Of a DNA stretch of 64,000 bases, positions 31,601 to 60,688 are shown piece by piece. Source of the stretch: Trypanosoma brucei (Eukaryota); NCBI GenBank assembly GCA_000002445.1, contig CM000207.1:2176001-2240000 (forward strand). Reading direction: 5' to 3'. Position 1 is the first letter of the stretch. Each line of letters begins with the position of its first letter. The notes beneath the pieces were generated by a model. It was not told where the DNA came from and did no database searches. It saw only the letters and a program-made list of their open reading frames with translations. The translations under genes were made by a program, and so were the position numbers.

Positions 31601-32126
31601 AAATTGCCAACCGAAACTCGGAAATGTGGAACAATGTCTGGAGGAGCGAATTCAAGTAACATGTCGCTCCCTGATTCAATAACCCATTATACTTCGTTCT
31701 CCGCCTTTTGTGCTCGTTTACTGCGTTACTCGATACTGTTTCGTCACTTATTATACCTTCGGCCTTCCCATCCACAAAAATGTCGCTGTTGACAACCGTT
31801 GGAGCAAGTAAAGAAGTTCTCCGGAGAGAAGGGCTCCACAGACGCGCACTCAGGCGGGTGTGAACTATCTGGAATCCCTCACATCCTGAGCCACTGCGCG
31901 ACGTAACATGATGTATCGCCCGCATGAAAACGGGATTAAGTGAATGATGGATGCCACACTCAGCCAATAAGGCCACACGATTTCGACCTGTCATAGCCGC
32001 CAAGTCACTCCATGTTAAGTGGCATTTCTCCATCGATGCCTCCGATGGTAATAGCGACCTGTCATACATGGCGTCATTCCAAAAAATGTGCTTCACAATA
32101 CCTAGAACCTGAAGCATGGTTTCCAA
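28632..32126 (-). CDS. Ubiquitin carboxyl-terminal hydrolase (USP/UBP family deubiquitinase), 1164 aa
   Basis: Cys box GLLNQGATCYLNSLLQTLF. His box GHYFCFIWCSDAWYRFNDGVV. Large USP architecture with a long C-terminal extension. Confidence 0.82.
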   Translation of the reverse strand: METMLQVLGIVKHIFWNDAMYDRSLLPSEASMEKCHLTWSDLAAMTGRNRVALLAECGIHHSLNPVFMRAIHHVTSRSGSGCEGFQIVHTRLSARLWSPSLRRTSLLAPTVVNSDIFVDGKAEGIISDETVSSNAVNEHKRRRTKYNGLLNQGATCYLNSLLQTLFHISEFRLAIYQIPTAEEAEEKNDVNIKATKSIPYALQRLFCHLQTGSEAADTTELTESFGWSSSDSFVQHDVHELTCELLDKLENKLGGVRKSDNGFTVEEIASNAISRLFVGILESFVRVGEVGYYGAKEQLFYDIQLVVKNTTDIYASLDKFFQVEVLDGKNKYCLEHDGQKTYHCAEKGVRLKLTPPILILHLTRFDYDPQKGETKVLSRWVYYHTLDLSKYVPHASLDEVHYTLCSVLVHSGSNAGFGHYFCFIWCSDAWYRFNDGVVSQASLRDVFETNFGGSRINYWGSQVPSIANAYMLVYIRTSQLKQMLRPVELKDVPLHVAQQLEREREEREKRLREKAEDHLYGRIHFIEPHDIVAKNEFLSCRRPAGAQFPSQRTLRVLLSSEALPAFNSFVDDKLGVRSSEQTLWYVASKGVRNRFSLHRRVSGRLAVSDVLGGDKECCVLVVNAANAHCIEVDGDEELEHDLIHHKVYTPMQLKVHFVGCTVISRKKRVEFSDVFEKMESFVRSAIAGIADDVAKTRDHHLTGVCLKSVEEVRTPTVAPFLPLSLGGSGYDRDINKSVNKLTVLIEDEQGKFLSSQQYLQSGDTLIWQEETPGVDARNIFYSDIVSFQHFLRRRIPVEIKLNSPPSYPTLVDAQLADDMTYEQLQRYVARLIGQSDNYDRVRFTMYNPETRLPYFMKGRRSDRSNLTRLLSPPVQRSIPLSKILYYEYCKYTVTEIEAAHSLQFKLFGSCVRPIGEYWVLMPREEQITPKALFGQCVKEISDVRATESVNSLAVSQSVRSDREKEPQTGEMTQSELNYYASLDPQEAWRTLRLVDVWCGRIYNVFDKDHAQTFNRSTFEESAEYRIEELPKPIDGVPPQNQSIIQVHHFTLLRNRANPVDTHGNPFSIYIGHDEMAPSLLQRIAMKLGLSEAAVVDWKMALVKEDRVLEVLPTVAMGKQLFDFCDEHHYQPNKQPPTKMAFLGLEHAPLSKRCARKEDKVVIHN

Positions 32127-32466
32127 AATAGCTTTTTTTTAGAAGAGGGGGTGAGGGAAGAAAGCAATCTAACTTTTTAAAAATGAGGTATATGGAGGAG
32201 GAAAATGATACCTGTCCCCAGAGTACGAGCAGGAGACGTGAACACAATCTGAAACCAAGAAGCCTTTCATCTGAACCCCCAATTTCCGTATCATAAACAA
32301 AAATTTAAAAACAGACCAAATACGTGGATGGATACATCTTTATTTTCTTCTATTTTGCCTTACTAGTCTCTTGTTGGCACAACGCCGTTATGCCGCCTCT
32401 ACATGATTCCCAAAATCGGAAGCAAAGCCAAAGAAACCAGAAGTTCGGCGAAATATACGATCATCT

Positions 32467-32763
32467 TCAAACATCTGAAAATCGTTGAATTACAATTAGG
32501 GTGAAATCCTTGTCCGGAGCGACCATGATTTCGTTCTTTTTGCTCCTTATGCGCAAGAAGCAAATGTCATTCGTTGGATCTAGATCTCTAACGCAATGAC
32601 GTGCCTTTGCGGCTAAGGCCGTGATAAGATGCGCATACTGATTTTGTGTGGCAGTGTCCTCAATGGTACTCCTTATTGGCGTTCCTTCATTATTCACCAC
32701 TATGATTCCCGTTACGTTCGGTCGCTGACTAATTCGCTGGAAGCTTTCCTCTATCTCAGACAT
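32467..32763 (-). CDS. Dynein light chain roadblock-type (LC7/Robl)
   Basis: 98 aa. [15 protein letters not shown]...[25 protein letters not shown] is near-identical to the roadblock family core. Start placed at the internal MSEIEE. Confidence 0.82.
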
Positions 32764-32844
32764 CCTCAGACACCGAGAGAGTATGTACTCTGCCGAACAC
32801 CAAGAACGGTGTGATGAAGTAGAGTTAGAGTATAAACAAAGCAC

Positions 32845-35800
32845 CTATTTACTGTGGAGAAAAACTTTACCCTTCGCTGTTCCTCTACTTCAACTTCTAT
32901 CGACTTCCTTTCGTGTTCACAAATTTCCACAAAACACAGCCAATGCTGGCAGATATGTGAAAAGGAATGAAAAAGGAAATGAGCGTTTCGTGTACGAGTA
33001 ATGCGAAGGCGAAAGAAAAATTGCATATAAAGTGGTTTTGTGCGCAAAGAGTACAACTCTTGTTCAGCATCCGAAGGAAAATGGCTTAATTAACTATTTC
33101 TAGCTTTGCTGCTGATGTTATACACGCGATTGATTGTTCCAGAAATGAGCAAATGACTTCGATGAAACAACTGAAAACACTCATCCGGGGGATTCCACTA
33201 GAACGTTTTGATGGGGTCGCGCGCACACACAGAGGAAGTCGGTATCATATAAAATAAAAATATTTTGATTGTTTCACCACCAACAATGATCCTTGCCTCT
33301 ATATTCATGAATTAGCTGGTCACATCCCCTTCATGGAGTTCGTTTTTATGACAGTCCACAACACCAACTTTCCAATCCTTTCGTTGTGTGACTTCGCATA
33401 TGTAGCCCTATTGTTAGGGTGGGTGTGGGCACAGTGAACGAACGCCGTTGAGGGTGGCTGCAGCAAATCCAAAAAGAAAGTTTTTCTCTCCCCGTGTGCA
33501 CTAAAAACACTGTTTCGGTCCCTGTTGAAGTTCCCCGATACAGTTACGCACGTGGCGTCATCCTCCCTCCTACTTGGTAGCACAAATTTGCTACCGTAAC
33601 CGCCTTATTTATGAATACCCTAGCTTTTAAAAGGGGAGTCAATCGTAAAAACGGGTTCAACTAACGGTCCAAAAGGTAAGAATAAACTTTTTACTATGAT
33701 CGATAACATCACAGAAGAATTCCTTCCCCACGACGAGTTCATTAACAATTTTATCTAGTAGCTCGTTTAAAAAAAAAAAAAAATCCCGCAGCCATCCTCC
33801 TTACACCACTGTCACAGACTAGCACCGGTTACGCAGTTAGACCACTTAAGAAAAAACAGCAGCAAAAACGTTTGCACAAGGATAACGGACTTTTAAAAAA
33901 TAAAGGCAGACGAAAAGCATTGACTAGACAAACTCTGGCCTGACTCACCCGCACAAGATCTGCAAAAGAAAAGGGAGGGGAAACAAGACAGCAATGTTTT
34001 GGCCGAACAAACAATGCGATTAACAGGAATGAAAAAAGCTGGTGTTTCGCTGATGGCCTCACCTACATATCAATGCGGCCAGCACCAACCTCCGTGTCCG
34101 CTCAACATCCTTCAAAAATAGGTATTCCGCGAGCCAAGACAAACATATGTATATACGTACAACCACCGAAGATTGCACATTTCCTCTTCTACATATAGCC
34201 ACCCTCAAGTTTTGTATACCAACACACTGAGCCACTCGATAACGGGGATGCCCCCCCCTCCAAATATCGCCCGAACTGTCAGACGAGACCATATTAGTCG
34301 TGCAAATACAATAATACCTCGCCCAGCGCATCTACATGCATAGACGAATGAAATATAGAAGCAAAGATAGAAACATTGTCAGTGGCCAGCGCACCTCGGC
34401 GCAAAAGAGTAAACAATAATAATAATACCCCTGTCTTCCTGAGGGAAAAGTTCAGGGGGATGTAAAAATATTGTTCACTTCTCACGGGTCATTCATATGG
34501 GGTTCGAAAAGAATGAAATGCGAACAAATACTAAGAATACAACAAAAAAAAATCGAATTCGCTCATAAGCATCTCCGTACATATATAATCACTCCATAGA
34601 CAAAACACAAGGGTTTTATGCTAACTCTACGACATTTGGCAACGGAAAGTTCGAGAGTATGATTAAACGAACATGGGTAACCCCAAAATTGTTTAGAATA
34701 TATACTCAATTTAAGAAAAAAAATGCAATAAGTTCAAAGCTGAACCATCCTGTGTATGACCCTTCAACAACAAAAAACATGCATAGTACATAACCCTCCA
34801 CATGCACCATCACTCGATTGATTGCTCAAACCAAACTTTTAAAGAGTTGAGTTGCCTAGAAGAACCCTTGTTCCCTCAATGCCTGTCACAAACCAACACA
34901 AGCCAAAACGAAACACGCCTCGGAAAACTATTAACAGTAATCAAACGGTCATGGTAGATAATAATCTGGCAACGAAGTTTTGGTCTATCACAGTTAAGTA
35001 AGTTGAAAGCATTTCAAAGTTACGAACATATCTAGTACCAGAAGTAAAAAAAATAGCTAAAGGCTCAACTTAATTTCCAGCACGCCGCATACTAAACACC
35101 AATAGTCTAAACGTAAACAATTCTTACCAAATGAGCGACCGCCATAAGTTTGAGTTACAGGACGAAAAAGGAATCGCTCTGTCATGCTATTAAAAAAAAA
35201 AAAAGCATTGCTGCCCCAGAAAGAAGATAGAGTCTCCAAGACCTTCCCTTACTTCCCATGCTAACATGTCGCCTAAGCTTCTCCCGCAAGTTTGTAGGGA
35301 ACACGTCAGAACCAGAAACTGCGAAGGAGAAATGCAGTTACCGTTAACTGGCGGCAGTGCACCAGAAAGAAAACCATATAACTGGGCGCATTTCCACATC
35401 ATTTTCTCCTTTTTCTTTGTCTTACAACAAATGTGCAAAGGTGGTTTCACCTCGCCAAACAGAGTTGCAGACACACAGATCAAATATATGCATATTACAG
35501 TTTTCCCCCAAATTGCACTGCGGGGCACAAGCACCAAACGAGAGAAAATAGGGCGACTAGACAACATTTTAATCTCACCACTCATGCTCAATAAGTCCCG
35601 TAAACAGCAAAAAAGTACAGCCAAACGTTAGCATAACGACAAATGGACAAATAAACGACCCACCATAATTAAACGGACAAGCGACAACAACAAACTGGCT
35701 TCTCAAAAAAGCAAAGGGACGGCGGAGCAAAAAAATAGAGGAAACGAAACGTGACAGTGCGGGAAAAAAAGGAGAGTTTTTAATCCAAGAAGGGTCTTAC

Positions 35801-38800
35801 CACCTGCGAAGTGAATTACCTTTAATAAGTCAACTACTAAGCCACTGAGATACCAACACATCAACAGCCCGTTATCCTGTAGCGAAACCATAAGCAGCTC
35901 GCAAGGGACCAGCACCACAAGCACTGCATACAATGCAAGGAGCTACAACTGCGGTAGCCCCCATACCCCAAAAAATAAAAAGAGAAGGAGGGAGTCGTCG
36001 GCACCCTAACCTTCGGCGCAAAACTGTGAGCAGCTGATACTTTTAAAAATATATATGTGCTTCGGATTTTTTTTTTCGATCCCTTAATCTATTTAAGAAG
36101 ATTAAAGAGAAGGGCAAGGAATTGCAAACTAAATCTATAATCATCAATACCCATCTGACACAAACTTAGGTGGCAAGCAGCAGCGGAATATTTATTTCAC
36201 AGTAGACTTGTGAAAGGGCAGTTCATGTGGTCCCCAAAAGCCTCGGGACACTGCCACTTACTTTTGTAAGTTAAACTCCTTCACCAACTTTGCGCAGTTT
36301 AACCGTGTGCCTCCGCGGGAGCCGACCGCCAGTTTGGTGACGGAGCGATTAAACGAGTAATTTGTGCTAATGTTGTGGGAATCAAATATCATAAACATCT
36401 CATCCATGGCCACGGAAAGACCGTAGGCTTTTGTGTTTCCTTTTGTTTCCGCGCCTTACAGGAATGTATTATCAACCCAAATGTCAATACTCAGGGGGAA
36501 AGGATTCCACGAATGCTACTGAGGAGAGTCGGATGACACGGGCCTGAGCCTGCATGATAAGAAAAGGGAACTTAAATCAACGACACCACACAACATTACT
36601 TTCACCTCACGGGAATAAAATAAGAAGACATGCCCCAGACCCACAACCCCTCAAAGAGCCATCTGTGACCAAATCAACTGCGGGTTCCCAATTGGGTGTA
36701 ACCGTGCGTTTCTTCTTTTTAAACAGGCAAGAAAGCAATACCCACTTACTAAACCAAGTGCGGACAGTGGCAACAAAGCGGCCTCTGTAGCGGGGACAAG
36801 TTCTCTGTCCGAGGCAAAAGACGACGACGTAACGCCTCTAAGAAAAAACAAAAAAAAACAGACAGAAAAAGTCGACAACTCAGGATAGTAACCGCATAAG
36901 GGTCTTTTGAAACGTGTTCCAAAAGGAACAATTGCCTCGTAAGGTTCATCCGCTTTTGTTATTTCTCTTGAGTCCACGCAATTCACCAGCGACGCTCGTT
37001 GGAGGGTTTATCCTCTGCAATTGAGAAAAGGGATGACCCGAGCTCCTGTTGGTGCGGAGGAGGCATCCTTTAAGATACCGACCTTCCAAAGTAGACGATC
37101 ATCGCCGATGGAAATAACCTGAGGGCTCCTTTCACTGGTCCCTTTTGGTCTCAGTCCGATCAGTCCCCAGAGATGTTGAAATCTACATTCCGCACTCGAA
37201 TTTAAGCGAGAAATGATTCAATATATTTTTTTTTTAGAATTTTCTTCGTGCCTTCGTGAGAGTTTCCCCCCACTGGCGCGGCCATCAGCCATCACCGTAG
37301 AGCCCTGAAATGCTATCGTTCTGGCGACTGTGGCAGAGTCTCCCTTTTTCATTCATCCTAACACACCCTCTATAATTTTTGTTGTATTTCCGCATATGAA
37401 CGGAATACAGCAGATGGGGCGAGAAGCCTCCCACCCTGGACTCTCCCAAAGATGCCAATTGGCAATCCTTTTTTTTCGGAGGTCCACATCACCGGACAGC
37501 AGCATCTTAGTGCGGATGATACTGCTGATGGCACGCTGGCACGTACCCAGGGACCGACAAATGAAAAACGGTGTCCCAGGAAGACGCTGCTGATCCCTGT
37601 GCTGTATGATGCCGTAGCCGGAGCACAGCAGTGTTCCCCATGAAAGGAACTCTGCTGGCTCTTGGCTTCCCCCGATGATACGGGGTACTGGACCCTGGCA
37701 CCACGTTGAGGTGGCCGGCATCGCCAGGGGATTCAATATATCTCCAGCAGCGGGACGCGCACTTGCTGTAAAGGAATGGAAGCCTTGTCCTGCGTATTCA
37801 ACAGGCGTGTGGCATGCGCCCTCCTTGTTATCGTATAACCGTGCGTCTTGAAGGGACAACGCCCTGGCGGCTCCCATGGCTCTTATCCTTCATCTAAGAC
37901 ATGGGTTACATCATAGAGACCATATTCTACATATTAGTCAACATGGCGGTGTATTTGTCCAAGTGGCTGACAGTGTTCCTCGGCAACTGGAACGGATAGA
38001 TGTGCTTAATCAGTTGGGGAATAGTGTGAGGATTCATGCTGTGTTCTTCCACAACTTGTGGCTTCAGCATGCTGTAAAGGCCCCTCTCCTAACGGGGTGC
38101 GTCATCACCTCCCATGAAGCCAGAATGCGTTCGACTTTGGTTGTTGTGAGCGTTGTTACATGTTCCTTGAGCTTCAAAGTGGAAAGTAGTCACGTAATAT
38201 CGAGAGCGTCCTAATCCCCGAATGCGAACTTAACGACCTGCTCGGTGTGAATTGGACTTGGCTGTCTTAGGTGTCACCAACCAATCGAGGAGCGCTACAC
38301 TGTCCCTGTTCCATTGGAAATGCTTCCGTATCCGTGTCGGGATCTCTACCCGACGACTTGTCGTAATCCACACCACACGCACAAACCACACACTCCTTCC
38401 AATCCGAGCAAAAAGTAATAATCTGAGCCATTCCGACCTTTTGTTAAGGGACTCGCTTATTTGATCTCGCTTCTCGCCACAATCTTCCGTAGCCGCAAGA
38501 TCATCACGTCTAACAGTCATTGATCCAACTTAGTCACCGCTACTTGCTGGCCGAGTTGCTTTGCATGTGCGTTAATTTCTGCCAACGCGGATGCGTAATA
38601 CTTATTCATAATGACGCGATGCAAAGCCGACACGCCTTCTCACTCAATGTTTCTCGCTATATTCATCAGCGTAATTAAGGCCTGTTTATTCAGACTGCGA
38701 AACATTGAAGAAACGTAATTTTTGCCATGTGGTTTATCGCGCCAACACCATTCGCACTAAAACACCGCTGTCCGGCTATTGTGTTAGGAGGCTTCTCCCT

Positions 38801-39599
38801 CACAGCTGCTGTGTGCTGTGAGGTTGTGGCGTTAAAGCAAAGGAGATATATTGTGAAAATATTAAAGAAGGGTAACTCGGGGGCATTCAGCTGTAGCTGC
38901 ATACTCATCGGTACATTGCGATGGTGGCCGATGGCTTTGTTGGTAAGGGGAAGATATCACGAAGTTACGAAGAAAATTCTAAAAAGGCAAAAAGGAGAAA
39001 AGGGGAAAATTTTTTGCCACTGCGCCACGGCCGACGCAATGATATTACATGAAAGCCCACACCATTATTGCAAATGGGCAGCTCGTGGAGGGAGTGAGGA
39101 TTGGGATTATTCTAACAGCTTTGTGGTTGTGTGTGCCGTGCTTTTGGAAAATATTGCAACCAATGAAAGGGAAGGCGAGTGTCACCTTACTTTCCATGCT
39201 GCGACATCGACGCATCACGATTATATGCTAGTTGCCCTGCGAGGGAAGGTCGTGAAGGCGAAGGTTAGCTTCCGGTTTAAGGAAGTGTAGAGACTTCCTA
39301 ATACTACTGTCAGAAACTACTGTTGCCGCGTGCTTCAGGCACTGGGTCAGTAATTCATAAATACAACAACGAGAATAAAATTAATCCCTTGTGGCTGCTA
39401 AGCGTGCAAGCAACTGAGAATAATAAACAGTATATTTTTGCCACACTTTATTGATTTCTATATATATACAAAACAACCTCATTACATTTATCATTTCTTT
39501 TGTGCCCAAAGGCTGCTGAATGAATGTTAGGATTACTGACCATAACACATTTTGGCATGCACCTCAATTACTTCCTTATAACACTTCCCCCCCCCCCGT
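32845..39599. promoter_or_regulatory. Divergent strand-switch region between the minus-strand PTU (left) and the plus-strand PTU (right). Likely Pol II transcription start region.
   Basis: Gene orientation flips from minus (all genes below 32.8 kb) to plus (all genes above 39.6 kb). The 6.7-kb gap has no long ORF and carries A-runs, a RIME copy and a C11 polypyrimidine tract just upstream of the first plus-strand gene. Confidence 0.55.
37226..37729 (-). mobile_element. RIME non-autonomous retroposon (about 504 bp). Pr77-like 5' end CCCTGGCGATGCCGGCCACCTCAACGTGGTGCCAGGGTCCAGT, internal A8 at the midpoint, 3' poly(A)10.
   Basis: The minus-strand read starts CCCTGGCGATGCC at 37729, the hallmark ingi/RIME/L1Tc 5' signature. 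A8 lies at about 256 bp in (where ingi-specific sequence is inserted in full ingi). T10 on plus at 37226-37235 gives the poly(A) tail. The first 250 bp is about 85-90% identical to 51349-51595. Confidence 0.7.
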
Positions 39600-39674
39600 T
39601 TGATTCATCGCTTAGCTCTATTATTAAAAAAGAAAAAGCATTTCCTCAACACTCAGCACCTCAAGGAATCGGAA

Positions 39675-42600
39675 ATGGGAACTATAATGTCAGGAAACCA
39701 AGGAAGAAAGCGACAGCGCATCTCATCTCCTGAGCAGTCAGAAGCTTTAAAGGAACCATCAACTACTGAACAAAATAAACTCACCACCGTTACAATCACC
39801 GAAGAGACGCGTGACGCCAGTAATGATGAAACTGTGGTATCGTTACTGAATGAGCATGAGAAATTGACTAAACAAACGACACGGCTGGAAAGCAGTGTGA
39901 AGGCACTTAAGTGTTTCATGAGTAATCTCACAGCTATGAGTGGCGAAAGGCGAGGTGGTGTGTGTGATGACACCGAATGCATACGCGCGGTAACGTTATA
40001 TAATGCTGCTGATAATGCCTTCAGTGACGAAGGACTACATGAAGGTGCTCTTTCCTCACTCTGTGGCCGCATTCAAGCTAAGAAATTAACCATTGCGCTA
40101 TCAAAGGGTTGGAAATTTAACTCACAACGAGTCAGTAAGCTAAAGCAGTTAGAAGAGTTACGCATTGAATATCCGCGTGGCAAACCTGTGAATATGATAT
40201 CTTTGAAGAGACTGCACATGTTGAAAAGGCTTTATCTTAAGAGCAACAATGTTGACAACAATGGCGCTCGTCACTTATTCAATATTGGAACATTGGAGGA
40301 GTTGGTTATTGCTGACACCATGCAACTGACAAATATCAGAGGAATCTCTCGCTTGACTAACCTGATGTGTCTTGAGTTAAATTCCACAGATATTGATGAC
40401 AACTGTGTGGAGGAAATAAGTGCATGTGCTAAACTGTCCAAACTGAGTGTATCCGAATGCAACAATATCACGGATGCAACCCCAATTTCACAACTTGCAG
40501 CGCTTGAAGAGTTGAATCTAAACAGCTGTTACCACATAACGAAGGGAATAGGAACACTGGCCAGGTTGTTACGATTGCGTATGCTGGACTTGAGTAGTGT
40601 TCCTGTGGAAGATAATTGTCTGAAGGATTTGTGTGACTGTGGGTCTCTTGAAAAGCTGAACCTTTCTTATTGTATTCAGCTGACAGATATCAATCCACTC
40701 TCCAATGCCGCTGCTGTTGAGGAATTGAACCTTAACGGTTGTCGCCGAATAACGCGGGGGATGGGCGTTGTGTGGGTATTACCAAAGCTACGCGTATTGC
40801 ACATGAAGGACATGCACCTGAGCGAGCCATCTCTCGATTCAGTTGGGACTGGTGGATTACTTGTAAAGGTCAGTCTTGATAACTGCGCAGGCTTTGGTGA
40901 TATGACACTCTTATCCAGCATTGTTACACTCGAGGAGCTGAATATTCAAAAATGTGCTGACATCATTAGTGGTGTGGGTTGCCTTGGTACACTGCCATAC
41001 CTGCGTGTACTTAACATAAAGGAGGCACACATCTCGTCCCTTGACTTTACTGGTATTTGTGCCTCAAAATCCCTTTTACAGCTCAATATGGAGAGTATCA
41101 CGGGACTGAGTAATGTGGAAGCACTCGCCAACATTTTGACTCTGGAAAAACTAAGCCTTCACGGCTGCACGGGTATTGACGCAGGAATTGGATGTCTCGG
41201 AAACCCGCCACAGCTTAAAATGTTGGACCTGTCTGGCACAAATACCGACAATGAGTCTCTCAGAAGTTTATGCCTATCGCAGACAATGGTGTCCCTCAAC
41301 CTTTCCCATTGTTGGAAAATGACAAATGTGTCCCATATTTCAAGCCTCGAAGCATTGAATGAACTGAATCTGAGCAACTGTTTTGGAATAAATGCAGGAT
41401 GGGAAGCACTTGAAAAACTTCAGCAGCTACATGTGGCAATCCTCTCGAATACACATATTGCTGACGGAGACATATCCCATTTCAGCAAGTACCAAAACCT
41501 TGTTACGCTTGATCTTTCTTTCTGCGATAAGTTACTTGATGTTACAGCTCTCTCTAACATCACTACGCTTGAGGAGTTGAATCTTGATAGTTGTTCAAAC
41601 ATCAGAAAAGGGCTGAGCGTTCTTGGAGAGTTGCCACGGCTTTGTGTGTTGAACATAACGGGTGTGCACTTGAAAGATTCAGTTATTGGTTCACTAGGGA
41701 ATGGTAAATCACTTGTAAGGCTCAGTCTTGAGAATTGCAAAGGGTTTGGTGATGTCAAGACCCTCTTGAACCTTGTTACACTTGAGGAACTGAATCTCCA
41801 CTACTGTGACAAAGTAACCTCTGGAATGGGAACACTGGGCAGCCTACCGCAGCTTCGTGTACTGGATTTGGGACGGACACAAGCTGATAATAATTCCCTT
41901 GAGAATATCTGCACAAGCTCAATCCCACTTGTATCATTAAATCTTTCGCATTGCAAGAAAATAACATCTATTTCTGCAATAGCCTCCCTTACGGCATTGG
42001 AGGAACTCAACATTGACAACTGCTGTAATGTAACATCCGGTTGGAATGTATTTGGTACACTTCACCAACTGCGTGTCCGTACTGTCAAATACACGCATTA
42101 ATGATGAAAACATACGGCATGTTAGCGAGTGCAAGTCTTTGAATACACTCAACCTTGCGTTTTGCAAAGATATAACGAATATCACAGCACTTTCTAAAAT
42201 TACTATGCTGGAGGAGTTGAACCTTGATTGTTGCCCTAACATCATAAAAAGTATTGAAACTCTTGGAACGCTTCCCAAGGCACGTATCCTAAGCATGAGG
42301 GAATGTCAAATTGGAGACAGTGATGCACAACAATGTTCCATCCTTGGGAATAGTAAGTCACTTGTGAAACTGAATCTTGAGAGGTCAAGGGGGCGCATAT
42401 CTGTGAAAGTTCTGTCTAACGTTGCAACGTTGGAGGAATTGGTACTTGATCATTTACAGGAAGTATGTTGCATACCGTCATTTTCCTGTCTACCGCATCT
42501 TCGAGTACTGAATCTGAAATATACGGATATCAATGGTGATGTAACTAAAAATATTTCCGATTCGAAATCGCTGCAGTCACTCAACTTATCACATTGCAAA

Positions 42601-43872
42601 TGGGTAACTGATATATCAGTATTATCTTCCTTATCGACACTGGAAGAACTGAATATTAGCGAGTGTGAGCAAATACGAAAAGGCTGGGAGTCGCTCGGAA
42701 AGCTGCCTCTACTACGTGTGGCAATTCTATCTGATACTAAAATCACCGCTAAAGATATAGTTTGCCTTAGCAGTTGCAAAACACTTGTGAAACTAAAGTT
42801 TTTCCGGTGTGAGGAGTTGTCAGATGTTACGGTGGTGTATAAAATTCAATCACTGGAGGAGCTGATAGTTAAGAACTGCTCAGACGGCCTCAAGGGACTG
42901 AATGCTCCTGGTACACTCCCACGGTTGCGTTTTTTTGCTTCTGCGAAATGTGAGAGGTAGTGATATATCTGTTGAATCTATCGGGACGAGCAAATCTCTC
43001 GTGAGGCTTACTATTGAAGTGGGCGAGGACTTAACAGACACAACACCCCTCTCAGATATCACATCCCTTGAGGAATTATCATTGCGGGAATGCGGTGATA
43101 ACCTGGGAGGAGTCGGGACACTTGAGAAACTGCCACGGCTTAAATCGCTGGATCTGGGTTTATCTGATATTAGCAATAGCACACTTAATGATATTTGTCT
43201 GTCTCGATCCATTACGTCACTCAACCTATCCAACAATTATGAACTAACAGACATATCTCATATATCAAACCTTACGGCACTGGAGGAATTGAATCTGAGA
43301 GGATGTTACCACATAACTTCAGGCTGGGAAGCACTTAGCGAATTACCACGACTTCGTGTGCTCAACTTGGTATCCGTCAGAGTTACGACGCGTTACGATG
43401 GATATTATATCAGCAGATGCAAATCCCTCGTCACACTCAACCTTGAATCGTGTGATATGACCGATGCTTCATGTCTTGCTAATATCAAGACACTGGAGGA
43501 GTTGCATATAGGGAAATGCGAGATGTAACGCAGGGGTTTAGTGCACTTTTCACTCTTCCGAGGTTACGCATTCTTGACCTGATTATGTCGCGCATTACAG
43601 ATGAAGATCTCATGGAAATGCAGCTATCCCATACCATTGAGGAGCTCAATCTCTCTTATTGTGAAAATCTTAATGATATTACACCACTTGGGAGAATAAA
43701 ATCTATTAAAAACTTACATTTCCTTTTGAGCTATGATGCCAGAAGGCTCAGAGAAGAAGGATTCAGAAGTCTTTTGGAATTGCCATGTCTTTCTTGGGTG
43801 GGGGTCAAAAATGCTTATGTCAGTTCCGATATCCTGCGTGAACTGAGAAAAAGGAGGTTACATATCCATTAA
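39675..43872 (+). pseudogene. Leucine-rich repeat protein (LRRP, ESAG8-related LRR family without RING) of about 1,400 codons, disrupted by three frameshifts
   Basis: Four consecutive overlapping ORFs (39600-42101, 42046-42960, 42902-43528, 43516-43872) all carry the same roughly 24-aa LRR (L..L..LEELNL..C..IT.G...L..LP.LRVL.L). The repeat phase continues across each junction only after a frame change: a 4-bp insertion near 42075, a T7 homopolymer at 42930-42936, and a 1-bp change near 43522. Start placed at ATG 39675 (MGTIMSG). Confidence 0.7.
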
Positions 43873-45965
43873 TATGTGGTCCATTATTTCGTGTTGTATT
43901 ATTGTAACAACTTATTGCTGAGAATACGTTATTAAATTAAACATCCAGTTCGAGTGGTTCGCTCACTGTAGGCACTATTACTCAAACAGATACCAGTAAC
44001 AATTCATATGGATGATATTGTATGTTACACTATCTTAATTACGAGAAATACGAGGATCTCATTACAGTTATTTGAGTGCTTCGTATTTTTGCAAGTTATA
44101 TCCATCATATATTGTGTAAAGAACAGTTAGGAAGGTGTGCGTGTGCGTGCGACAAGCTTTTTATTCAATGGCACTTTGTATTATGGCTATCGGTGTAGTG
44201 ATGATTATATTACGCTCATTCATTATTACAACCATGCTAAATGAATATCTCATTTCTTGTATGTCCTTCTGTCTTTACAGCCGCATACTCTCACCCAAAT
44301 ATCGAACGAAATATTACTGTTATTATTATTAATATTATTGTTATATGAGACACAGCATTCATTGTTAATTTTCACCCATAGCCACACCTGAAAAGTAAAA
44401 GCACTCAACATTCTACAGTACTGTTTGCCTGTCAATGATATGAGGAGGTGAAGTTTATATACCATTAAAGTATAGTGAATATATTTCATTACTGTTATTA
44501 TTATTTGTTTTACTGAAAGAAATGACAGAGTGACTTTAAATTATATCAGAGCAGCATCTTGACCACCAATTTGCTACACAGGAAAGGATAATACAACACA
44601 TTACGTGTCTCGTGATTCTTTTTTACACTTGCCACTGGTATATCTATATTCTCAAACAGTGCAATTGAATCCCCTTGTTTCAATTAAAATATTTTAACTT
44701 TTTGTATTTATTTTTGTAATTACATAATTTATTTTATTGCATTTTCTTTTAGAATCATTTGAACCAATTATTTTTGAAGAAGTGATACATTCTGAAGCCC
44801 CCTTCGCAACGAAGGGGAATGATGAAACAAAAATCGGAAACTCTGGCTTCTCACACACATTATATTCTGGTAAACTCACACTCCGTTTTTATCTTATATT
44901 GTTTTTTTTATCCTTCATATACAATGTGACAAACTTAAAAATTTAAAGGAAGTTTGCTTGTGTCCTCACTCACATCTTGTTGATATGTGCAACATGACAA
45001 TCAAAATATTTCAACATATTAAATTATTCTTAGCGTTTCCGTTATATTTAATTGCCCGCCTTTTCGCTGTCAGTGCAAATAAGGTAGATTTTGACGTTTC
45101 GCTTCTAGTTAGGAGTTAGTTTGTATCATGTTAATGTTATGAAGCGAAGTGGGACAGTTACCATGTTGGAAGGAAGAATGGGTAGATTCCAACTGTAACG
45201 GCGGAGGGTTGCACGCAAAAGCTTCCGTGAGTTCAGTGGAATTTTATTGTTTCTTTTTTGGGAGCGGCGAGTGTCGGTTTTATTCGCATAAGCTCCAGAA
45301 AATGGAAGCAGCTAACAATTCGAAGGAAACCATAGTCACAACGTCCCGTGTGTTGCATGCTACGATCAGGATGGGAAACAAGTGAAATGGGACATTTGCA
45401 CCTTCACAAACGAAAAGATGTGCCAATAGCTTGCTATTATATACAGTGCTGAAGGCTTTTGCAGAAACTGACCTGGTGCTGGCACAATAACATAGACACG
45501 CAGCGTAATGTGCTGGGCCTCTTTGTGTTATGTGCGTTATTCCTGCTTGTGTATTATCAACCTCAATAGTATGCGTGGTGGTGGTTAATAGGTTGATAAC
45601 GTGATAAACTTAGATTGTGGTTCATGAGGCCATCAGAGGCACATATTGGTATGGGAAGTATTCGATTCTCATTCGAACGCATTTAGATCACTCTCCTCAA
45701 CACTAATGTATATGATTCCTGTTCTCTTTTTCTTCCCTTTTATATTTTGTACAGAAACAACCGTATGTATATTAATATAAGGTATCCTATGACTTACCTT
45801 CCTGTACAGTGTGAAGTTAAAAGGGGTGGGAAATTGATATGCCAACTTTTGTTGTGACTATCATATCCATCCTTTGTATCGTTAAGGGAAGGGTATTGTT
45901 GGTAAATGCGAGTCCTCAATTGTATGGAAGTAAATTTACTGACCATAAGGAAGGTACTGGAAGTA

Positions 45966-45991
45966 CCCCTAACCCTAACCCTAACCCCCCC
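45966..45991. repeat. Interstitial telomere-like repeat: (CCCTAA)3 followed by C7
   Basis: ccctaaccctaaccctaaccccccc read directly. TTAGGG is the trypanosome telomeric hexamer. Confidence 0.75.
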
Positions 45992-47716
45992 ACAGAGGCG
46001 GTGACAGTTGGGTTGGGTGGGCGTTTTAAAAACTCACTCTTTGCGACGCTTCTCTTAAGCGTGATATGGAAACAAGAATTATGATGGTTATTTCATCTCA
46101 CCTGACAATGAGTAAAGGTTTGGCCATTCCTTTCGTAGGCCCCCGGAAAAAAAAAATGTTCATCTATACATGTTACGGGTGTGGGAAACTGCAACAGTGC
46201 GAGATAGCTTCACTTGTAACAGTGCGTCACTTTATTCCCTATGTGCAATCCGAAACTAGGGAATCTCCTCGTTCCCATTAAACTTAGACTCACAACCCCT
46301 CTGAAGTAAGGAGAGAACATACCGAGAAAAGAAAAGACATTTGGAATAAAATGGAAATTGGCAATGGAATCACATGAACGACAAAGCACAAGGGAAATAT
46401 TAGTGAAGTCCTCATGTCCGCGGAGGGGAATATGTGATCGAATGCAGCTGCGTGAATAAAGTAAGGGAGAAAAAATGTGCAAAGCGAAAAGAAATAGAGG
46501 ATGGTAAATGTGAAACGAAAGCAATGGTGAAGAACTAAGAACCGAAGTAGTGAAAGATGCGTAAAGCAATAAATTGATATCAAAATATTTGTGTAGGGTG
46601 CTCTTTGAAGTTGATGGTGTTCTCTTACACAGCATCTTGGATTGTTTTTACGTAACCGAATGAACATACAAACCTACTAACACACTTTGGAAAATGATGA
46701 AACTGGGGGTTGAGTTGTGAGGGAGTGGCACTCCATAACCTGTAAGACAATAGGAAGAAGGGGCATTATTTGGGGAACACGCACCGACACAAAAGTGCTG
46801 TGAAGACGCGAGGCAGTACTTACAGTAACTCTGAACAACCATTTGCCTATTTAACTTAAATATTACAATTTGGGTCTGACTCAAGAATAAATGAGGCTAA
46901 ATAGTGAATGTGCACGTTTCCATTGAGAAGGGTGTATTCATGAAACCACATATTAATATGGTGAAGACGTGGTTGCGGACGCTACTGAGCAGACGACGCG
47001 ATGAAAAGCGCAATGGGAAAGGTTGCTTATGTAATTTCCCTATTATACAACGCATACATCTCATTAGTTGTGACATTGTATTGATCATGGTTTTCAGATA
47101 TTGTCGTGAATACCACCAAGCCTTGTTTATTTTTTCACTGTATCTTTTTCTGTTACAGATTTTTGAATCATAGCGGTATCTTGTGAAACACCGAAGAACA
47201 TCAAAAATAATTTTATTGGTTGATGTTCGTAGAATTCAGAGCAGAGCTGCTAGAGAACAGTAGGAAACATATAAAAGATGGGTGTATCTGTTTCTACTTT
47301 CAACTCTGATTGCAGCCCTACTCTGTAAAACCGAACGTACACCAAACAATATCTTTCATTTCACCTGCCCCTGCTTCAGCCAGCATGCGTTTAAAATGAC
47401 ACATGTCCAATACTGCGTTGGGAAGAGTTAGGGAACTATCAGGCGTATATTTTTGTGCTGAAAGAGGAAATAAAACAGACTGATTGAAGCGATGTGTGGT
47501 ACAGGACTAGTTATTACGCCATGCTTCAGAGTAATCGACCTTTCCTTTTTTATTTTCTCACTGGTGACACAAATAAATACAAATCACCAATCAAACTATT
47601 CATCTTACTGAATGACTCAACGTTTGTCACCTCTCCATTTACTCTCACGACGCTACTTAAAAAAAAAACAACAAGAATTTTACCAGGATTAAAAAAAGTA
47701 AAGTTTATCATCCCCA

Positions 47717-49549
47717 ATGGTGTGGAAGGGTCAAGCCAAGGGAAAACAACAAAATAACGGAAAGAATATTCTGAAGGGAAAACGGAGACTGTTGGCGACA
47801 GGACCTCAACAGGAGCCAGAAGTAAACACTCCAACGGTCAACGCAAACAGTAACGTAATGAAATCACTTCGTAAGCGAGATCGACCGACGGAAGAACTGC
47901 AGCAGGTGGGGGACGTTTCTGTAGGGGCAACCGAAGCTTCCAGTGTCCTCAATAATGCTGAAAGGGAAAGGAAGGATACAAGTGCCGCAGACGGTGATAC
48001 AACTCATCCTAATTTATTGAGCGATGGCCAGGAGGTTTCACTCAAAGGCACCAAAGTTGATAAAAATACCTTGCAACCGCTCCAAGCATCTGTTACCCTA
48101 CGGAAACTGAGTGTTACGGTGAAGGAGGAAGATGTCGATGTGCAGCAGCTGACCTCACTGAAAATGCTAAAGGATTTGTGTATCGAATACGTGAGCGGTA
48201 AAATACTGAACGTGACTTCTCTGAAGGAATTGTCCCATATGGAAAGGCTTTGTTTCAAAGGAAGTTGCATTGAGGAATTGGAGGAACTTACGTTGAATGG
48301 ATGCGAAGAGCTGAAAAAAATTGAGGGGATACACCTTCTGCCGAACCTCACGATTCTCAACTTGGGGAGGACATCAACAAATGACGATTTCTTGAAGGAA
48401 CTTTCCGTATGCAAGAAACTATCAAAGTTGACACTATCTGGGTGCCCAGGATTGGAGAATGTCGAACAGCTGTCAAATTTTGCAACACTAAAGGAGTTGA
48501 GTCTTTCATGGTGCAGTAATATTATACATGGGTGGGAAGGCATTGGCCAACTTCCACAGCTCCGAGTTCTTCATTTGGAAGGGAACAAAATCACTAACAG
48601 AACACTTGAGCCAATCTCGAAGTCGAAGTCACTTGTATCACTAGATGTCTCCTTCTGTGAGAAATTAACTGACGCCACTCCACTCTGCCGTGTTAAAACT
48701 CTGGAAGAGCTGAATCTTCACGCCACTAAAATAACTTCTGGTATCGACAATCTGGTACTACTCCCGCGACTCCGTGTGCTGGATGTGAGGCAATTACAAC
48801 TCAGCGCCTTCGATACCATTCTCAGTACTTTTGCTGCCGTACGTTATGGCATTCGTCTTTCTTCATTTTGCAACGGTTTCGATATCCAATCTATTTCTTC
48901 CATTCAAACGCTTGAGGAATTGAGTGTGGGGGGGTTTTTCTGCGCCGCAATCCAATTCGGCAGTATTGGGGGACTTCCACGCCTTCGAGTACTAAGGTTA
49001 TCGAGCAAAACGATGTTTGACGAGTCACTTAAAGGAATAAGTCACTCGCGCTCATTGGTGGCATTTGATCTCTCAGGGTGCTCCTGCCTCGAAGACATTT
49101 CCTCTATATCAGGAATAAAGACATTGGAAGCGTTGAGTCTTAGAGATTGTACGAATGTATCAGATGGTTGGATTGCACTTGGGGAGTTACCACTGCTGCG
49201 CATCCTTGATCTATCATGTACGAAAATTCAAGATGTGATGCTTCGAGTGTTGTTCCCTAAGTTGAAACTAGACTGTCTGAGTCTTGCTGGATGCGAAAAC
49301 ATAACTCATATAGGGCCTTTAATTAACGTAAAATCACTCAAAAATTTGGTGCTGGAGGAATGTTCCGAGCTGAAAGCGGGGTTTGAGGCACTACTGGAGC
49401 TGCCCTTGCTCACATGGGTCGATCTATGCTATGTTAACGACAACAAAACGGTGAAAGACACATTGGTTGCGAGAGGGGTGGATATGAGAAGTGTATGGTC
49501 TATCATTGGAAATTGTACCTCATTATTTGATTGGTGGAGAGCTAAATAA
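47717..49549 (+). CDS. Leucine-rich repeat protein (LRRP family), 610 aa, intact
   Basis: Uninterrupted ORF with the same cysteine-containing roughly 24-aa LRR as the upstream LRRP (LEELNL..T.I..G...L.LLPRLRVLDL). N-terminal basic region. Confidence 0.75.
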   Translation: MVWKGQAKGKQQNNGKNILKGKRRLLATGPQQEPEVNTPTVNANSNVMKSLRKRDRPTEELQQVGDVSVGATEASSVLNNAERERKDTSAADGDTTHPNLLSDGQEVSLKGTKVDKNTLQPLQASVTLRKLSVTVKEEDVDVQQLTSLKMLKDLCIEYVSGKILNVTSLKELSHMERLCFKGSCIEELEELTLNGCEELKKIEGIHLLPNLTILNLGRTSTNDDFLKELSVCKKLSKLTLSGCPGLENVEQLSNFATLKELSLSWCSNIIHGWEGIGQLPQLRVLHLEGNKITNRTLEPISKSKSLVSLDVSFCEKLTDATPLCRVKTLEELNLHATKITSGIDNLVLLPRLRVLDVRQLQLSAFDTILSTFAAVRYGIRLSSFCNGFDIQSISSIQTLEELSVGGFFCAAIQFGSIGGLPRLRVLRLSSKTMFDESLKGISHSRSLVAFDLSGCSCLEDISSISGIKTLEALSLRDCTNVSDGWIALGELPLLRILDLSCTKIQDVMLRVLFPKLKLDCLSLAGCENITHIGPLINVKSLKNLVLEECSELKAGFEALLELPLLTWVDLCYVNDNKTVKDTLVARGVDMRSVWSIIGNCTSLFDWWRAK

Positions 49550-51348
49550 TCTATCATATGAGGTTTCAGGAGAACATCACTTCTGCCGCATCGTTAGAAT
49601 TAGGGCACCTAATCAAGTGATGGGTGAATCCAGGGGCACGCAGCGTCATGCGCAACATATCAATATTAGCAATGAAAGTGACGCCGATATCTGTGGTTAA
49701 GAAGCGTGGCACACTGCATGTTTCCCTTTTCAGAAAATAGTAAAATATCATCCCTATCATACGAGTGAGAACATGACGGGAATATCTCTTTCCGAAAAAT
49801 AAATATTCAACCCCCTCATCTAATTTTTTCATGATTCGTCCCTATTCGTAATATGACCCTGCAGAAGCAGGAATACATTAACGCAACACGTTTTGGGGCC
49901 TTTATTTTTCAAAAGCTCATGGCTACGCTCTCTGCATACGTTATTTACCTAAGTATATGTTATTTTGTCTGTATTTTACTGGAGCCCACTGCTACTTCAA
50001 AGGGCGCAGTTACACTAACCCCTTGCACAGCAAAGTGGTGTGTACCGTATTAACTCAACAACATCCATATCAAATATACACGAGTGTGTAGTAACGCTCT
50101 ATTGGTTTTGGGAACTATTATTTTATTTCTTACAATATGATGCCTCAGAGAAACTGAAGGCGAGGGCAGATCCTTTAATCCATCATATTTTCCGTTTTAT
50201 ATCGTATCCATATATGTTTATGACTTTCCCGTAGGTAGTTCCAAGGTACATTATGTATTCTTTCATTTAAAGAATCATTCCTTTCTTTCATATTTGCTTC
50301 TTATTTGACAACAATGAGCAAAAGGTTTTTCTCTCTGACGTTTACATTAATTTAGACACTGCTGTTAGCTGATAAGTTACAGAAAGCCGTACATTTAAAG
50401 TTACACGAACTCACACCGGTCCGAAATAGTAAAGTCTCTAGTATTATTACTTGTTTCTTTATTTGAGAAAAATACGAAAAGCAGCGTCGTGTCTGAAGTG
50501 AGAAACATGTGGCATACATGTGAGATCGGAGGACCACTGCCATTTGAATATCATATCCCAAAATTCTTTTGCTAACATTATTAACTCTGAATGCCTACGA
50601 GATTGTGAAGTGAGCGACCACTGACAGTGAAAACACGAGGATGTATTGTTATCGCCCATGAAAGACACTAGCGCTATTTTGCTTATTGAAAAGCAGAAGC
50701 TCTTTATAATGCCTTTAATCGGCTTGACACAGCAGGTATCACATTTGAAGGAGCAATGAACAAACCGTTACCACACGGAGATATTTTCGTTTACTGATCA
50801 AAAGGTACTCCCGCGACGCATTATTTTTGGTTTACACAACAAGAAGTGCTGTGGCATATGCAACTACTTACTTTTTGCGAGGTTATGTGAGTATATTTTG
50901 GTGACGTATGTAATTTCAATCCGCAGCTGATGTTGCAATGCAGTAATTATCAATGAGGTCTGTCAAGTGGATTCCAAATGGTGAAGCTGTGAGTGAGGAC
51001 GAAGGACTTATTGTCTGCCTCTGAACCGTACACTGCCAAGCACAATTGAATTAGTTTATCATACGACTTTGAAGAATTGCACAAAGTTTCTGGAGCGCAC
51101 TGGAGGCCTCAAGACATTAGCTCTCACGCCTGAAATGAACCGACCCTACTTAAGGTTTAACGGTACGAAACATAATGACATCCTCATGTGGACAGAGGAC
51201 TGGAGAGAGTGGAATGTCTCGAGAAGAGGGCTCTGTACTTGACAGACCCAATGGGATGGAAGAATGGAGGCCGAGCCAGGCCCCTACATTGCGATTGGGA
51301 GCTCTGGTATAGGTAAGTTGCTATCCATTGGTTCGCTTCTCCTTCATA

Positions 51349-51595
51349 CTCTGGCCACGCTGGCCACCTCAACGTGGTGTCAGAGTCCAGTACCCCGTAT
51401 CATCGGGGGAAGCCGAGAGCCAGCAGCGTTCTTCTCATGGGGAACATTGCTGTGCTCCGTCTATGGCATCATACAGCACAGGGATCAGCAGCGTCTTGCT
51501 GGGAAACCGTTTTTCATTTGTCGGTCCCTGGGCACGTGCCATCAGCAGTATCACCCGCACTAACATACTGCTCTGCGGTAATGTAGAGGAGATTT
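51349..51595 (+). mobile_element. 5' half of a RIME/ingi-type retroposon (about 250 bp). No ingi ORF follows, so truncated or degenerate (DIRE-like).
   Basis: CTCTGGCCACGCTGGCCACCTCAACGTGGTGTCAGAGTCCAGTACCCCGTATCATCGGGGGAAGCC... aligns with the 5' half of the RIME at 37226-37729 for about 250 bp, then diverges. The ORFs at 51264-51624 are translation artefacts of this element. Confidence 0.55.
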
Positions 51596-54565: not shown

Positions 54566-55181
54566 CGTTTTATATCTCCTTTTAATACTTTTTGACGTAA
54601 AATGAGACACCTTTCCCTTAACTCGATGAGGGGAAGCTTATTGCGAAAGAGGAAGAAAACTTTGAGACTCTAATAACACAGAAAAGTCAACACTTAATGA
54701 GTATCTGAGGGACGAGTAATAGTCGAAAAAAGATTTTTTTGCTTTGCTTTATTCACATGATTCCCCCCTCAAAAAAAAATAATACCTTATTCAGGGACTT
54801 GGTACTTGCTTGCAATTTAATTTAAGTATTTTGTTTGTTCTTAGCGACTTATCCCGTAAGGGAAGACGCTACTTCAAGTTGGGTGCTCCACACGAATTCC
54901 GAAACGCTAACACAGTGTCGGCAAACTGCGGCAGTTTGTGCATTTCGTTGGAAGAGAGGAAATTCGTCAAAGTTTTAACACCTTGATTGTGCGCGTGAAA
55001 GAGTCGTTGCGAGGGGGAAAATACGGTATCCCCACACACACACCAAAAAACAGTAAGGAAAAAAAAAAAAGAAACATCCCATAAAACATTCTTTTTCTCT
55101 TTCTTACAACTCAAAGTAGACACAGAGCATTTGTCAAAGACATATTCAAACAAGCTAGCATACGATTTCTGCTCTGGAGGG
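54566..55181 (+). repeat. Direct repeat copy 1 (about 615 bp) flanking the oxygenase gene
   Basis: About 98% identical to 57124-57735. Both copies end at CTCTGGAGGG and contain an A-run and CACACACACACC. Confidence 0.85.
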
Positions 55182-55515: not shown

Positions 55516-56499
55516 ATGTATTCTGCTACGCCGTTCATGACACCGCGTGCTTCGTTGCCGGTAATCGATGTCTCGCCATTGTTTGGGGGCGCGGAGCAGG
55601 AGATCATGAAGGTTGCCAAGCAGTTGGATCACGCGTGCCGCACTTCAGGATTCCTCTATGTCGTTGGTCACCCTATTAAACAAGAGCAGATCGATAGGGT
55701 ATTGCAAATTTCGAAAACTTTCTTTTCCCTTCCAATGGAAGAGAAGATGAAAATTGATGTCAAGAAGGGTTTCCTAAAATACAGAGGATATGTCCCCTTC
55801 GGAGCTGAGGAACCAGAGCATGCCAAAACCTACTCATATGAGGCGTTCAACATGGGATATCACCTGCCCCTACACCATCCTGAAGTCATGGCACGGGCCC
55901 CCCTACGCGGACCAAATGTGCACCCCACACAAGTTCCGGAGTGGGTAGACATCATGGAAACCTATTTCCGCGATATGTGGGCATTCATGCTCGTTCTACT
56001 TCGTGCCATGGCGCGAGGTATTGGAATACGTGAAGATTTCTTCGACGACAAGTTCAGCGTACCACAATGTGAGCTAACTGTCAAGCATTATCCCGAACCA
56101 AAAACACACGCGAATGGTAACACTCTGCGGATGGAGCACTCTGATTACGGGATTATCACTATTCTCTACCAAGATTCCACGGGAGGATTGCAGGTCCGTA
56201 ATCCTGACGACAAACTCGTTGATGTTCCACCCATTGAAGGAAGCTTTGTCGTCAACATTGGGGATATGATGGAGATGTGGACTAATGGGCGGTATCGTTC
56301 AACCAAGCACTGCGTTGTGTCCAGAGGAAAGGAACGGTACTCCATACCTTTCTTCTGTAACCCGAATCCGAACGCTTTGGTTAAATGTCTCGACAATTGC
56401 TACTCGGACACTAATCCACCGAAATACCCACCAGTCAAAGCTTCTGACTGGTTGCTGAAAAGATTGGCGGATCTCTATTCTTACAAATCGAAAATGTAA
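55516..56499 (+). CDS. 2-oxoglutarate/Fe(II)-dependent oxygenase of the iron/ascorbate oxidoreductase (isopenicillin-N-synthase-like) family, 327 aa
   Basis: Facial triad HSDYG (H-x-D) ... RYRSTKHCVV (distal His). RYSIPFF (2OG-binding RxS). N-terminal DIOX_N-like region. Length is typical of IPNS-like dioxygenases. Confidence 0.8.
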   Translation: MYSATPFMTPRASLPVIDVSPLFGGAEQEIMKVAKQLDHACRTSGFLYVVGHPIKQEQIDRVLQISKTFFSLPMEEKMKIDVKKGFLKYRGYVPFGAEEPEHAKTYSYEAFNMGYHLPLHHPEVMARAPLRGPNVHPTQVPEWVDIMETYFRDMWAFMLVLLRAMARGIGIREDFFDDKFSVPQCELTVKHYPEPKTHANGNTLRMEHSDYGIITILYQDSTGGLQVRNPDDKLVDVPPIEGSFVVNIGDMMEMWTNGRYRSTKHCVVSRGKERYSIPFFCNPNPNALVKCLDNCYSDTNPPKYPPVKASDWLLKRLADLYSYKSKM

Positions 56500-57123: not shown

Positions 57124-57735
57124 TTTTTATATCTCCTTTTAATACTTTTGACGTAAAATGAGACACCTTTCCCTTAACTCGATGAGGGGAAGCTTATTGC
57201 GAAAGAGGAAGAAAACTTTGAAACTCTAATAACACAGAAAAGTCAACACTTAATGAGTATCTGAGGGACGAGTAATAGTCGAAAAAAGATTTTTTTGCTT
57301 TGCTTTATTCACATGATTCCCCCCTCAAAAAAAATAATACCTTATTCAGGGACTTGGTACTTGCTTGCAATTTAATTTAAGTATTTTGTTTGTTCTTAGC
57401 GACTTATCCCGTAAGGGAAGACGCTACTTCAAGTTGGGTGCTCCACACGAATTCCGAAACGCTAACACAGTGTCGGCAAACTGCGGCAGTTTGTGCATTT
57501 CATTGGAAGAGAGGAAATTCGTCAAAGTTTTAACACCTTGATTGTGCGCGTGAAAGAGTCGTTGCGAGGGGGAAAATACGGTATCCCCACACACACACAC
57601 CAAAAAACAGTAAGGAAAAAAAAAGAAACATCCCATAAAACATTCTTTTTCTCTTTCTTACAACTCAAAGTAGACACAGAATATTTGTCAAAGACATATT
57701 CAAACAAGCTAGCATACGATTTCTGCTCTGGAGGG
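57124..57735 (+). repeat. Direct repeat copy 2 (about 612 bp)
   Basis: Near-identical to 54566-55181. Spacing of 2,558 bp suggests a remnant tandem gene-unit duplication. Confidence 0.85.
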
Positions 57736-60306: not shown

Positions 60307-60688
60307 GAATTATCCGTACTTGGGGTCAATATTCGGGAAGAGGAAGAAGTAAGAAATCGCTGCATTTATGATATCGATAGGAAAGGAAGGAAAACCTCAA
60401 AACCAAAAAAAGTCTTGTTTTGGGGGTTCGAACCCGGACCTCCAAAACACAAACACAATTAGAAGAGGAGTGTTGCCAGTTGGGCTATTTCGACAAATCG
60501 GAGGAAAAATTGAAAATTTATGCCCAGATGAAATATACCAAATCGTACACATCGAAGAGAAAAAACATAGGTGTACAAACGGTGCACACGTAGAAAAAAG
60601 TAGCGGAATTGATAAATCTCAGGTAAATAAGCCCATTACAGAAATCAGGTGATCAGTTTCTTTCTTGGGACAGAATATCGGGAGGTTT

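Follow-up and report, generated by a model that had tools for sequence, protein, structure and literature searches.

Three perfect copies of the telomere repeat lie at positions 45966-45991 of a 64-kb stretch of Trypanosoma brucei DNA (64,000 nucleotides in total, called the window below), which we take to be probably part of chromosome 9 of Trypanosoma brucei brucei TREU927. This locus raises the question of how telomeric hexamers came to stand between two protein-coding genes, and what they tell about the history of the surrounding region. The sequence-only reading of the window had taken them as a footprint of telomere healing or of a subtelomere-to-internal translocation and, together with LRRP genes, RIME and an SL fragment, as support for an origin of the region from subtelomeric DNA.

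Sequence of the tract and its genomic setting

Direct reading of the + strand at 45966-45991 gave CCCCTAACCCTAACCCTAACCCCCCC, i.e. CCCC-TAA-CCC-TAA-CCC-TAA-CCCCCCC. The three perfect CCCTAA units, which represent the C-strand of the TTAGGG telomere repeat with the G-strand on the - strand, occupy 45967-45984. They are bordered by a single extra C at 45966 on one side and are abutted on the other side by a run of seven C (45985-45991), the first three of which form a further half unit. Tandem Repeats Finder reported the same array with a period of 6, 3.5 copies and 100% matches at 45967-45987. The (CCCTAA)3 array with its C7 run, as described in the sequence-only reading, was thus borne out by both approaches, and its placement in an AT-rich 3.8-kb spacer between LRRP genes was likewise correct: the non-coding spacer that holds the tract (43873-47716) is 3,844 bp long, has a GC content of 37.5% and is bounded by LRR genes on both sides. 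Neither approach revealed degenerate or head-to-head telomere repeats at the tract, and no significant inverted repeat was found around it, the downstream GGGTTGGGTGGG being too short to count.

The tract is not a chance match, because a first-order Markov model of the window, in which any phase and both strands were counted, predicts only 6e-6 telomeric-hexamer 18-mers per 64-kb window and 0.003 per 35 Mb. The expectation thus falls about 300-fold short of a single random hit per genome, which places the tract far beyond chance as a non-random sequence. All three occurrences of CCCTAACCC in the window fall within the tract, which was also the sole match in the window when the 12-mer was searched with at most one mismatch. 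Single CCCTAA or TTAGGG hexamers were found at 16 further places. Homopolymer runs of C or G of at least 7 nucleotides are common (14 in 64 kb), and the C7 run is thus noteworthy solely for abutting the repeats. C4 borders the tract at one end and C7 at the other, and the chance of four extra C is roughly 0.2^4. The - strand of the tract reads G7-TTA-GGG-TTA-GGG-TTA-GGGG, and its four G tracts make a complete canonical G-quadruplex motif. Only three such motifs were found in the 64 kb (6236-6260, 21007-21049 and 45966-45991), each with its G-rich strand on the - strand.

The position of the tract is 2.1 kb past the stop codon of the upstream LRR gene and 1.7 kb ahead of the ATG of the downstream one, and these two neighbours have the same orientation within one transcription unit. 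The upstream gene (39600-43872, + strand) comprises four ORFs of 833, 304, 208 and 118 aa that overlap and differ in frame, and is either a pseudogene with three frameshifts or affected by errors in the reference sequence; the downstream gene (47717-49549, + strand) encodes an intact LRR protein of 610 aa. A divergent strand-switch region (32126-38727) separates this unit from a housekeeping unit on the - strand. To the left of 32126 every large ORF runs on the - strand, among them those for USP7, a kinase, a cyclophilin, an RNA cyclase and a MutL homologue, and to the right of 38727 every large ORF runs on the + strand. The + strand unit opens with a DUF1181 ORF (38727-39290, Pfam E 1e-48), followed by the LRR genes; the tract lies 8-13 kb into this polycistronic unit, with the CCCTAA strand as the sense strand.

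The base composition along the spacer showed no break at the tract itself. A shift in GC content from about 31% to about 42% (40-44% on the right side) was located near 45100, about 850 bp to the left of the tract. None of the repeat families of the window covers the tract flanks. The spacer contains 19 open segments of 60 codons or more, and Pfam searches with all of them gave no VSG, ESAG, RHS or retroelement match; the sole matches, Cas6 (E 0.0095) and scorpion toxin (E 0.019), were at chance level. No Rfam family reached the gathering threshold in the whole window and none was matched at E <= 1 over 43800-47800, and the local RNA fold at the tract was no better than that of shuffled sequence (z = 0.22). 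On these two results, there is no pointer to a structured functional RNA.

Elements of other kinds were also seen in the window. An inverted repeat of about 250 nt (37483-37732 and 51346-51587, 87-91% complementary), which resembles the 5' end of ingi/RIME retroposons, brackets a 13.6-kb block comprising the DUF1181 ORF, both LRR genes and the telomeric tract, and the pair could mediate an inversion of this block. Two direct repeats of about 0.6 kb (54590-55181 and 57146-57735, 98-99% identical, 2.55 kb apart) flank a gene for a 2OG-Fe(II) oxygenase (55516-56499, 327 aa) and look like the remains of a tandem duplication; oxygenase paralogues with 66% identity are present on another TREU927 record. 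The translated oxygenase ORF itself matches a TREU927 protein at 100% identity. In the segment 60252-60300, SL nucleotides ~15-39 (TTAGAACAGTTTCTGTACTATATTG) come after an A11 run and lead on to the initial ~20 nt of the SL-RNA intron (GTATGAGAAGCTCCCAGTAG). Judged by this sequence, the segment is a fragment of an SL-RNA gene and not of a spliced mRNA, and it resembles the target-site copy beside a SLACS retrotransposon. Its presence is one reason for the assignment to chromosome 9. A + strand frame at 60653-64000 stays open for 1,116 codons until it runs off the window; it is A-rich, has no Pfam match and encloses a 186-bp tandem repeat (60708-61084, 2 copies, 88%). This frame is a candidate for the 5' part of a SLACS-like element, SLACS itself having 185-bp repeats, and the SL fragment, the A11 run, the tandem repeat and the long frame together correspond to the layout of SLACS in an SL-RNA gene, in a chromosome-internal array.

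Telomerase RNA and transcription of the spacer

The telomerase RNA (TR) of trypanosomes is reported to be transcribed by Pol II, to be trans-spliced and about 1 kb long, and to contain the invariant template 5'-CCCUAACCCUA-3' (PMC8643685, PMC5175330). Since the tract lies on the sense strand, matches this template and is preceded by a polypyrimidine-AG signal, a role as TR template was examined. The 11-nt template is present on the transcribed strand of the tract in two overlapping copies, and CCCTAACCCTA is likewise found two times there, with the same sense as the + strand transcription unit. A polypyrimidine tract of 20 nt (45722-45741) and the first AG after it (45753-45754) form a strong signal 212 nt upstream of the tract. 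This segment (45722-45754, + strand) is a candidate trans-splice acceptor and, if used, would give an RNA carrying CCCUAA x3 near its 5' end. In addition, RNA-like contigs extend over 1.5 kb downstream. However, the published locus of TbTR is on chromosome 11, where the gene is bordered by Tb927.11.830 and Tb927.11.840 and has Tb927.11.850 as the second gene downstream (PMC4229120). Tb927.11.840 is a cation/proton antiporter with 15 TMD and Tb927.11.850 is a Bud32 kinase, whereas the neighbours of the tract are LRR genes and the 2OG oxygenase, with no antiporter or Bud32 gene nearby. The nucleotides published around the TR template (334A, 332A, 330C and 350C; PMC8643685) fit neither register: with the template placed at 45967 only 334A fits, and with the template at 45973 neither of the two checked, 334A and 350C, does. 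The box C/D framing is also missing, with no RUGAUGA in 45000-45966 (970 nt upstream) and the sole one at 46694, 700 nt downstream of the tract. Locus, neighbours, the box C/D pair and the nucleotides published around the template all spoke against the tract as the template of the TbTR gene, and its identity with the TbTR gene itself is refuted. A template in a paralogue or pseudogene of the TR gene is very improbable as well: a diverged TbTR paralogue received no support from any test, including the fold, which was not significant (z = 0.22), and the Rfam search, which gave no match.

Evidence on transcription came from an ORF at 46213-46635 (- strand, 141 aa), the only spacer ORF with a database record, which yielded six Logan contigs from another T. 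brucei strain (runs ERR7929156-64) differing from the window by SNPs at a rate of about 0.3%. The six share one start, exactly at 46029 and 38 nt to the right of the tract, and end at 47496-47531, 8-43 nt short of the next polypyrimidine tract; no Logan contig spans the telomeric tract. An LRRP contig from the same runs extends from 47693 to about 50170. Because the uncovered gap between them (47532-47692) coincides with the polypyrimidine tract and AG acceptors of the downstream LRRP gene, the contigs look like cDNA of two separate mature RNAs, which suggests that the right half of the spacer gives an RNA distinct from the LRRP mRNA. The left ends of both kinds of contig fall within stretches of A (A5 at 46028-46032 and A7 at 47691-47697). 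Since de Bruijn assemblers break at heterozygous homopolymer lengths, the break at 46029 is probably an assembly-graph artefact of a heterozygous A-run length, possibly plus a second variant nearby, and transcription of the tract appears likely. Exact look-up of the LRRP and 2OG oxygenase proteins returned no record. The 81-aa ORF spanning the tract had no exact record either, and a homology search with it was also empty; six other spacer or flanking ORFs had no exact record, and the protein look-ups gave no contig across the tract.

A functional role for such a transcript was considered. It is very doubtful that the tract is part of an unannotated trans-spliced ncRNA of about 1.8 kb, running from an acceptor near 45755 to a poly(A) site near 47500-47530, that acts on telomere biology, or that a G-quadruplex in the tract gates LRRP read-through. 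In the former case, the 21 nt of template-sense CCCUAA in such an ncRNA could act on TERT, as a decoy or substitute template, or could sequester TERRA or the G-overhang; in the latter, read-through into the downstream LRRP gene could be under the control of a G-quadruplex on the template strand.

Origin of the tract

The tract is probably a short interstitial telomeric sequence (short ITS) that arose from repair of a DNA break in a C/G homopolymer run, and is most likely a neutral scar. Its telomeric hexamers are few, perfect, in tandem and all of one orientation (3.5 units, 100%), the surrounding sequence is unique, non-subtelomeric and uninterrupted from one flank to the other, and the junctions show homology to the repeat and the telomerase template, with C4 to the left and C7 to the right of the TAA-containing core. 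On the G-strand (the - strand of the window) the locus reads 5'-...CCTCTGT-GGGGGGG-TTAGGG-TTAGGG-TTAGGG-G-TACTTCC...-3'. This product and both of its junctions are directly observed, whereas the break, the enzyme, the rejoining route and the neutrality of the tract are inferred.

In the simplest account, the event would have begun with a double-strand break within an ordinary intergenic C/G homopolymer run, a plausible target given the 14 runs of at least 7 nucleotides in the 64 kb. The 3' end ...TGTGGGGGGG would then have paired with the CCC of the telomerase RNA template; an end finishing in a G run would be a natural primer for telomerase, as the template begins with CCC. Telomerase would have added about three TTAGGG units, or else a break-induced template switch would have copied them from telomeric DNA, and the extended end would have been rejoined to the other half of the run via GGGG microhomology. 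The C7 run at 45985-45991 would accordingly be what is left of the G run that primed repeat addition on the - strand, C tracts would be retained on both sides of the insert, and both flanks would be the original neighbours; therefore, no chromosome-end or subtelomeric DNA need be involved. Addition by telomerase and template switching into telomeric DNA during break-induced replication would leave the same product, and both fit. Under either route a plain C run is expected at the site in some allele, strain or subspecies.

Vertebrate short ITSs are products of telomerase-mediated break repair, and breaks in T. brucei are repaired by homologous recombination or microhomology-mediated joining; this kinetoplastid is not known to have classical end joining. 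Our search of the literature on interstitial telomeric repeats and internal TTAGGG sites in T. brucei found nothing, and no paper turned up for the accessions of runs ERR7929156-64 either. The sense orientation of the tract, the splice-acceptor signal 212 nt upstream and the complete G-quadruplex motif were counted as points against a neutral scar, and the tract may have some function.

The reading that had been proposed for this region, in which the tract is the relic of an old chromosome end, i.e. a healed telomere or a piece of subtelomere translocated to the chromosome core with LRRP genes and retroelements, is unlikely. It would agree with the relation of the LRRP genes to the expression-site gene ESAG8, and with the surrounding 25 kb, which are rich in repeats, pseudogene and retroelement-like sequence; under healing, the polarity on the - strand would make the right-hand side the retained fragment. 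However, with only 3.5 perfect units, the tract has neither degenerate variants nor a head-to-head partner, no VSG, ESAG or RHS remnants were found in the spacer, the composition is continuous at the tract, and the two flanking genes share family, strand and transcription unit. ITSs from fusions or subtelomeres, such as the head-to-head array at human 2q13, have long and degenerate arrays, in many cases head-to-head, with subtelomeric repeats beside them. The tract shares with them the presence of telomeric hexamers away from a chromosome end, but at 21 nt, perfect and in one orientation it lacks their length, their degeneracy, their head-to-head layout and the subtelomeric repeats alongside.

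From the sequence-only reading, the telomere footprint stood insofar as the tract is telomeric and non-random and telomerase-linked repair is its most plausible source; the subtelomeric and translocation part received no support, as none of the hallmarks tested (repeats, Pfam, 70-bp motif, composition) was present. The check that it proposed for VSG-like or 70-bp-repeat remnants nearby gave none: the spacer has no VSG Pfam match, and a core motif of the 70-bp repeat had no match in the window, although this last result is weak evidence. The SL fragment that had been listed in support is real, but it appears to derive from the SL-RNA gene array and not from a subtelomere, because it carries intron sequence, and with its SLACS-like setting it points to a chromosome-internal SL-RNA array. 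The region is repeat-rich and accessory in character, and the tract adds no evidence that it originated at a chromosome end.

Further explanations were considered. Slippage from a chance CCCTAACCC seed could have produced a hexanucleotide microsatellite with no telomere link, in a window where small tandem repeats are frequent (31 rows of Tandem Repeats Finder) and where the 16 further single hexamers occur. This is improbable, since only one other period-6 array was reported in the window, slippage leaves the abutting C runs unexplained, and the exact telomere unit would be expected in only about 0.3% of arrays, because there are roughly 350 hexamer classes (our own count, from 670 primitive necklaces about halved by reverse complement). 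It is also unlikely that the tract is under selection, be it for the nucleation of TRF or base J or for a template-strand G-quadruplex that modulates Pol II passage, replication or RNA processing within the transcription unit. For Myb-type telomere proteins, three TTAGGG units in duplex form could suffice as a binding site, and the four-tract G-quadruplex motif is complete and one of three in the window; against this, there was no structure signal (z = 0.22), no literature on internal TTAGGG sites in T. brucei was found, and the tract lies away from a transcription-unit boundary. An assembly or cloning artefact in the reference sequence is highly unlikely. The Logan contigs do end 38 nt away with none across the tract, and the neighbouring LRR gene has three apparent frameshifts, but a chimeric join with a telomere clone would be expected to bring in a long repeat array, whereas the tract is 21 nt within unique and compositionally continuous sequence, and the contig break is better explained by a heterozygous A-run length at 46028-46032.

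Relation to known telomeric tracts and significance

As a probable product of break repair, the tract is most readily set beside the short ITSs of vertebrates, which Azzalin in 2001 and Nergadze in 2004 and 2007 reportedly described and which are thought to have been inserted by telomerase during the repair of double-strand breaks. Both consist of a few perfect head-to-tail hexamers in unique, non-subtelomeric sequence, and in both the junctions share homology with the repeat, which in the tract applies to its C4 and C7 flanks. The host differs, being a kinetoplastid without classical end joining, so that rejoining would have to proceed via microhomology. Vertebrate short ITSs are moreover defined by presence/absence polarity, whereas the tract is likened to them from its own sequence.

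A second comparison is offered within the trypanosomatids. An orphan tract of about 16 nt on chromosome 28 of L. major (LmjF.28:544271-544286) was met in a search for TR templates (PMC4229120, Table 1), was judged non-syntenic among Leishmania species and was set aside (PMC4229120). Like the tract described here, it has 2.5-3.5 telomeric hexamers at an internal position in a trypanosomatid chromosome core, but genus and locus are different and no homology is implied. With the template domain of TbTR/TbTER, the tract shares the 11-nt CCCUAACCCUA, the Pol II sense orientation and a position downstream of a splice-acceptor-like signal; it differs in chromosome, neighbours and flanking nucleotides, in having no box C/D frame, and in a template-like stretch of 21 nt vs 11.

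The tract carries less evidential weight for the history of the region than the sequence-only reading gave it. Tracts of this kind act as false positives in searches for telomerase-RNA templates, and they are potential off-targets of TTAGGG-directed probes, TALEs and ChIP. For trypanosome biology, the locus is a clean natural case of telomere repeats inside a chromosome core, of modest importance in itself. If an allele or strain free of the insert exists, it would document break repair by telomerase or from a telomere template in an organism without classical end joining.
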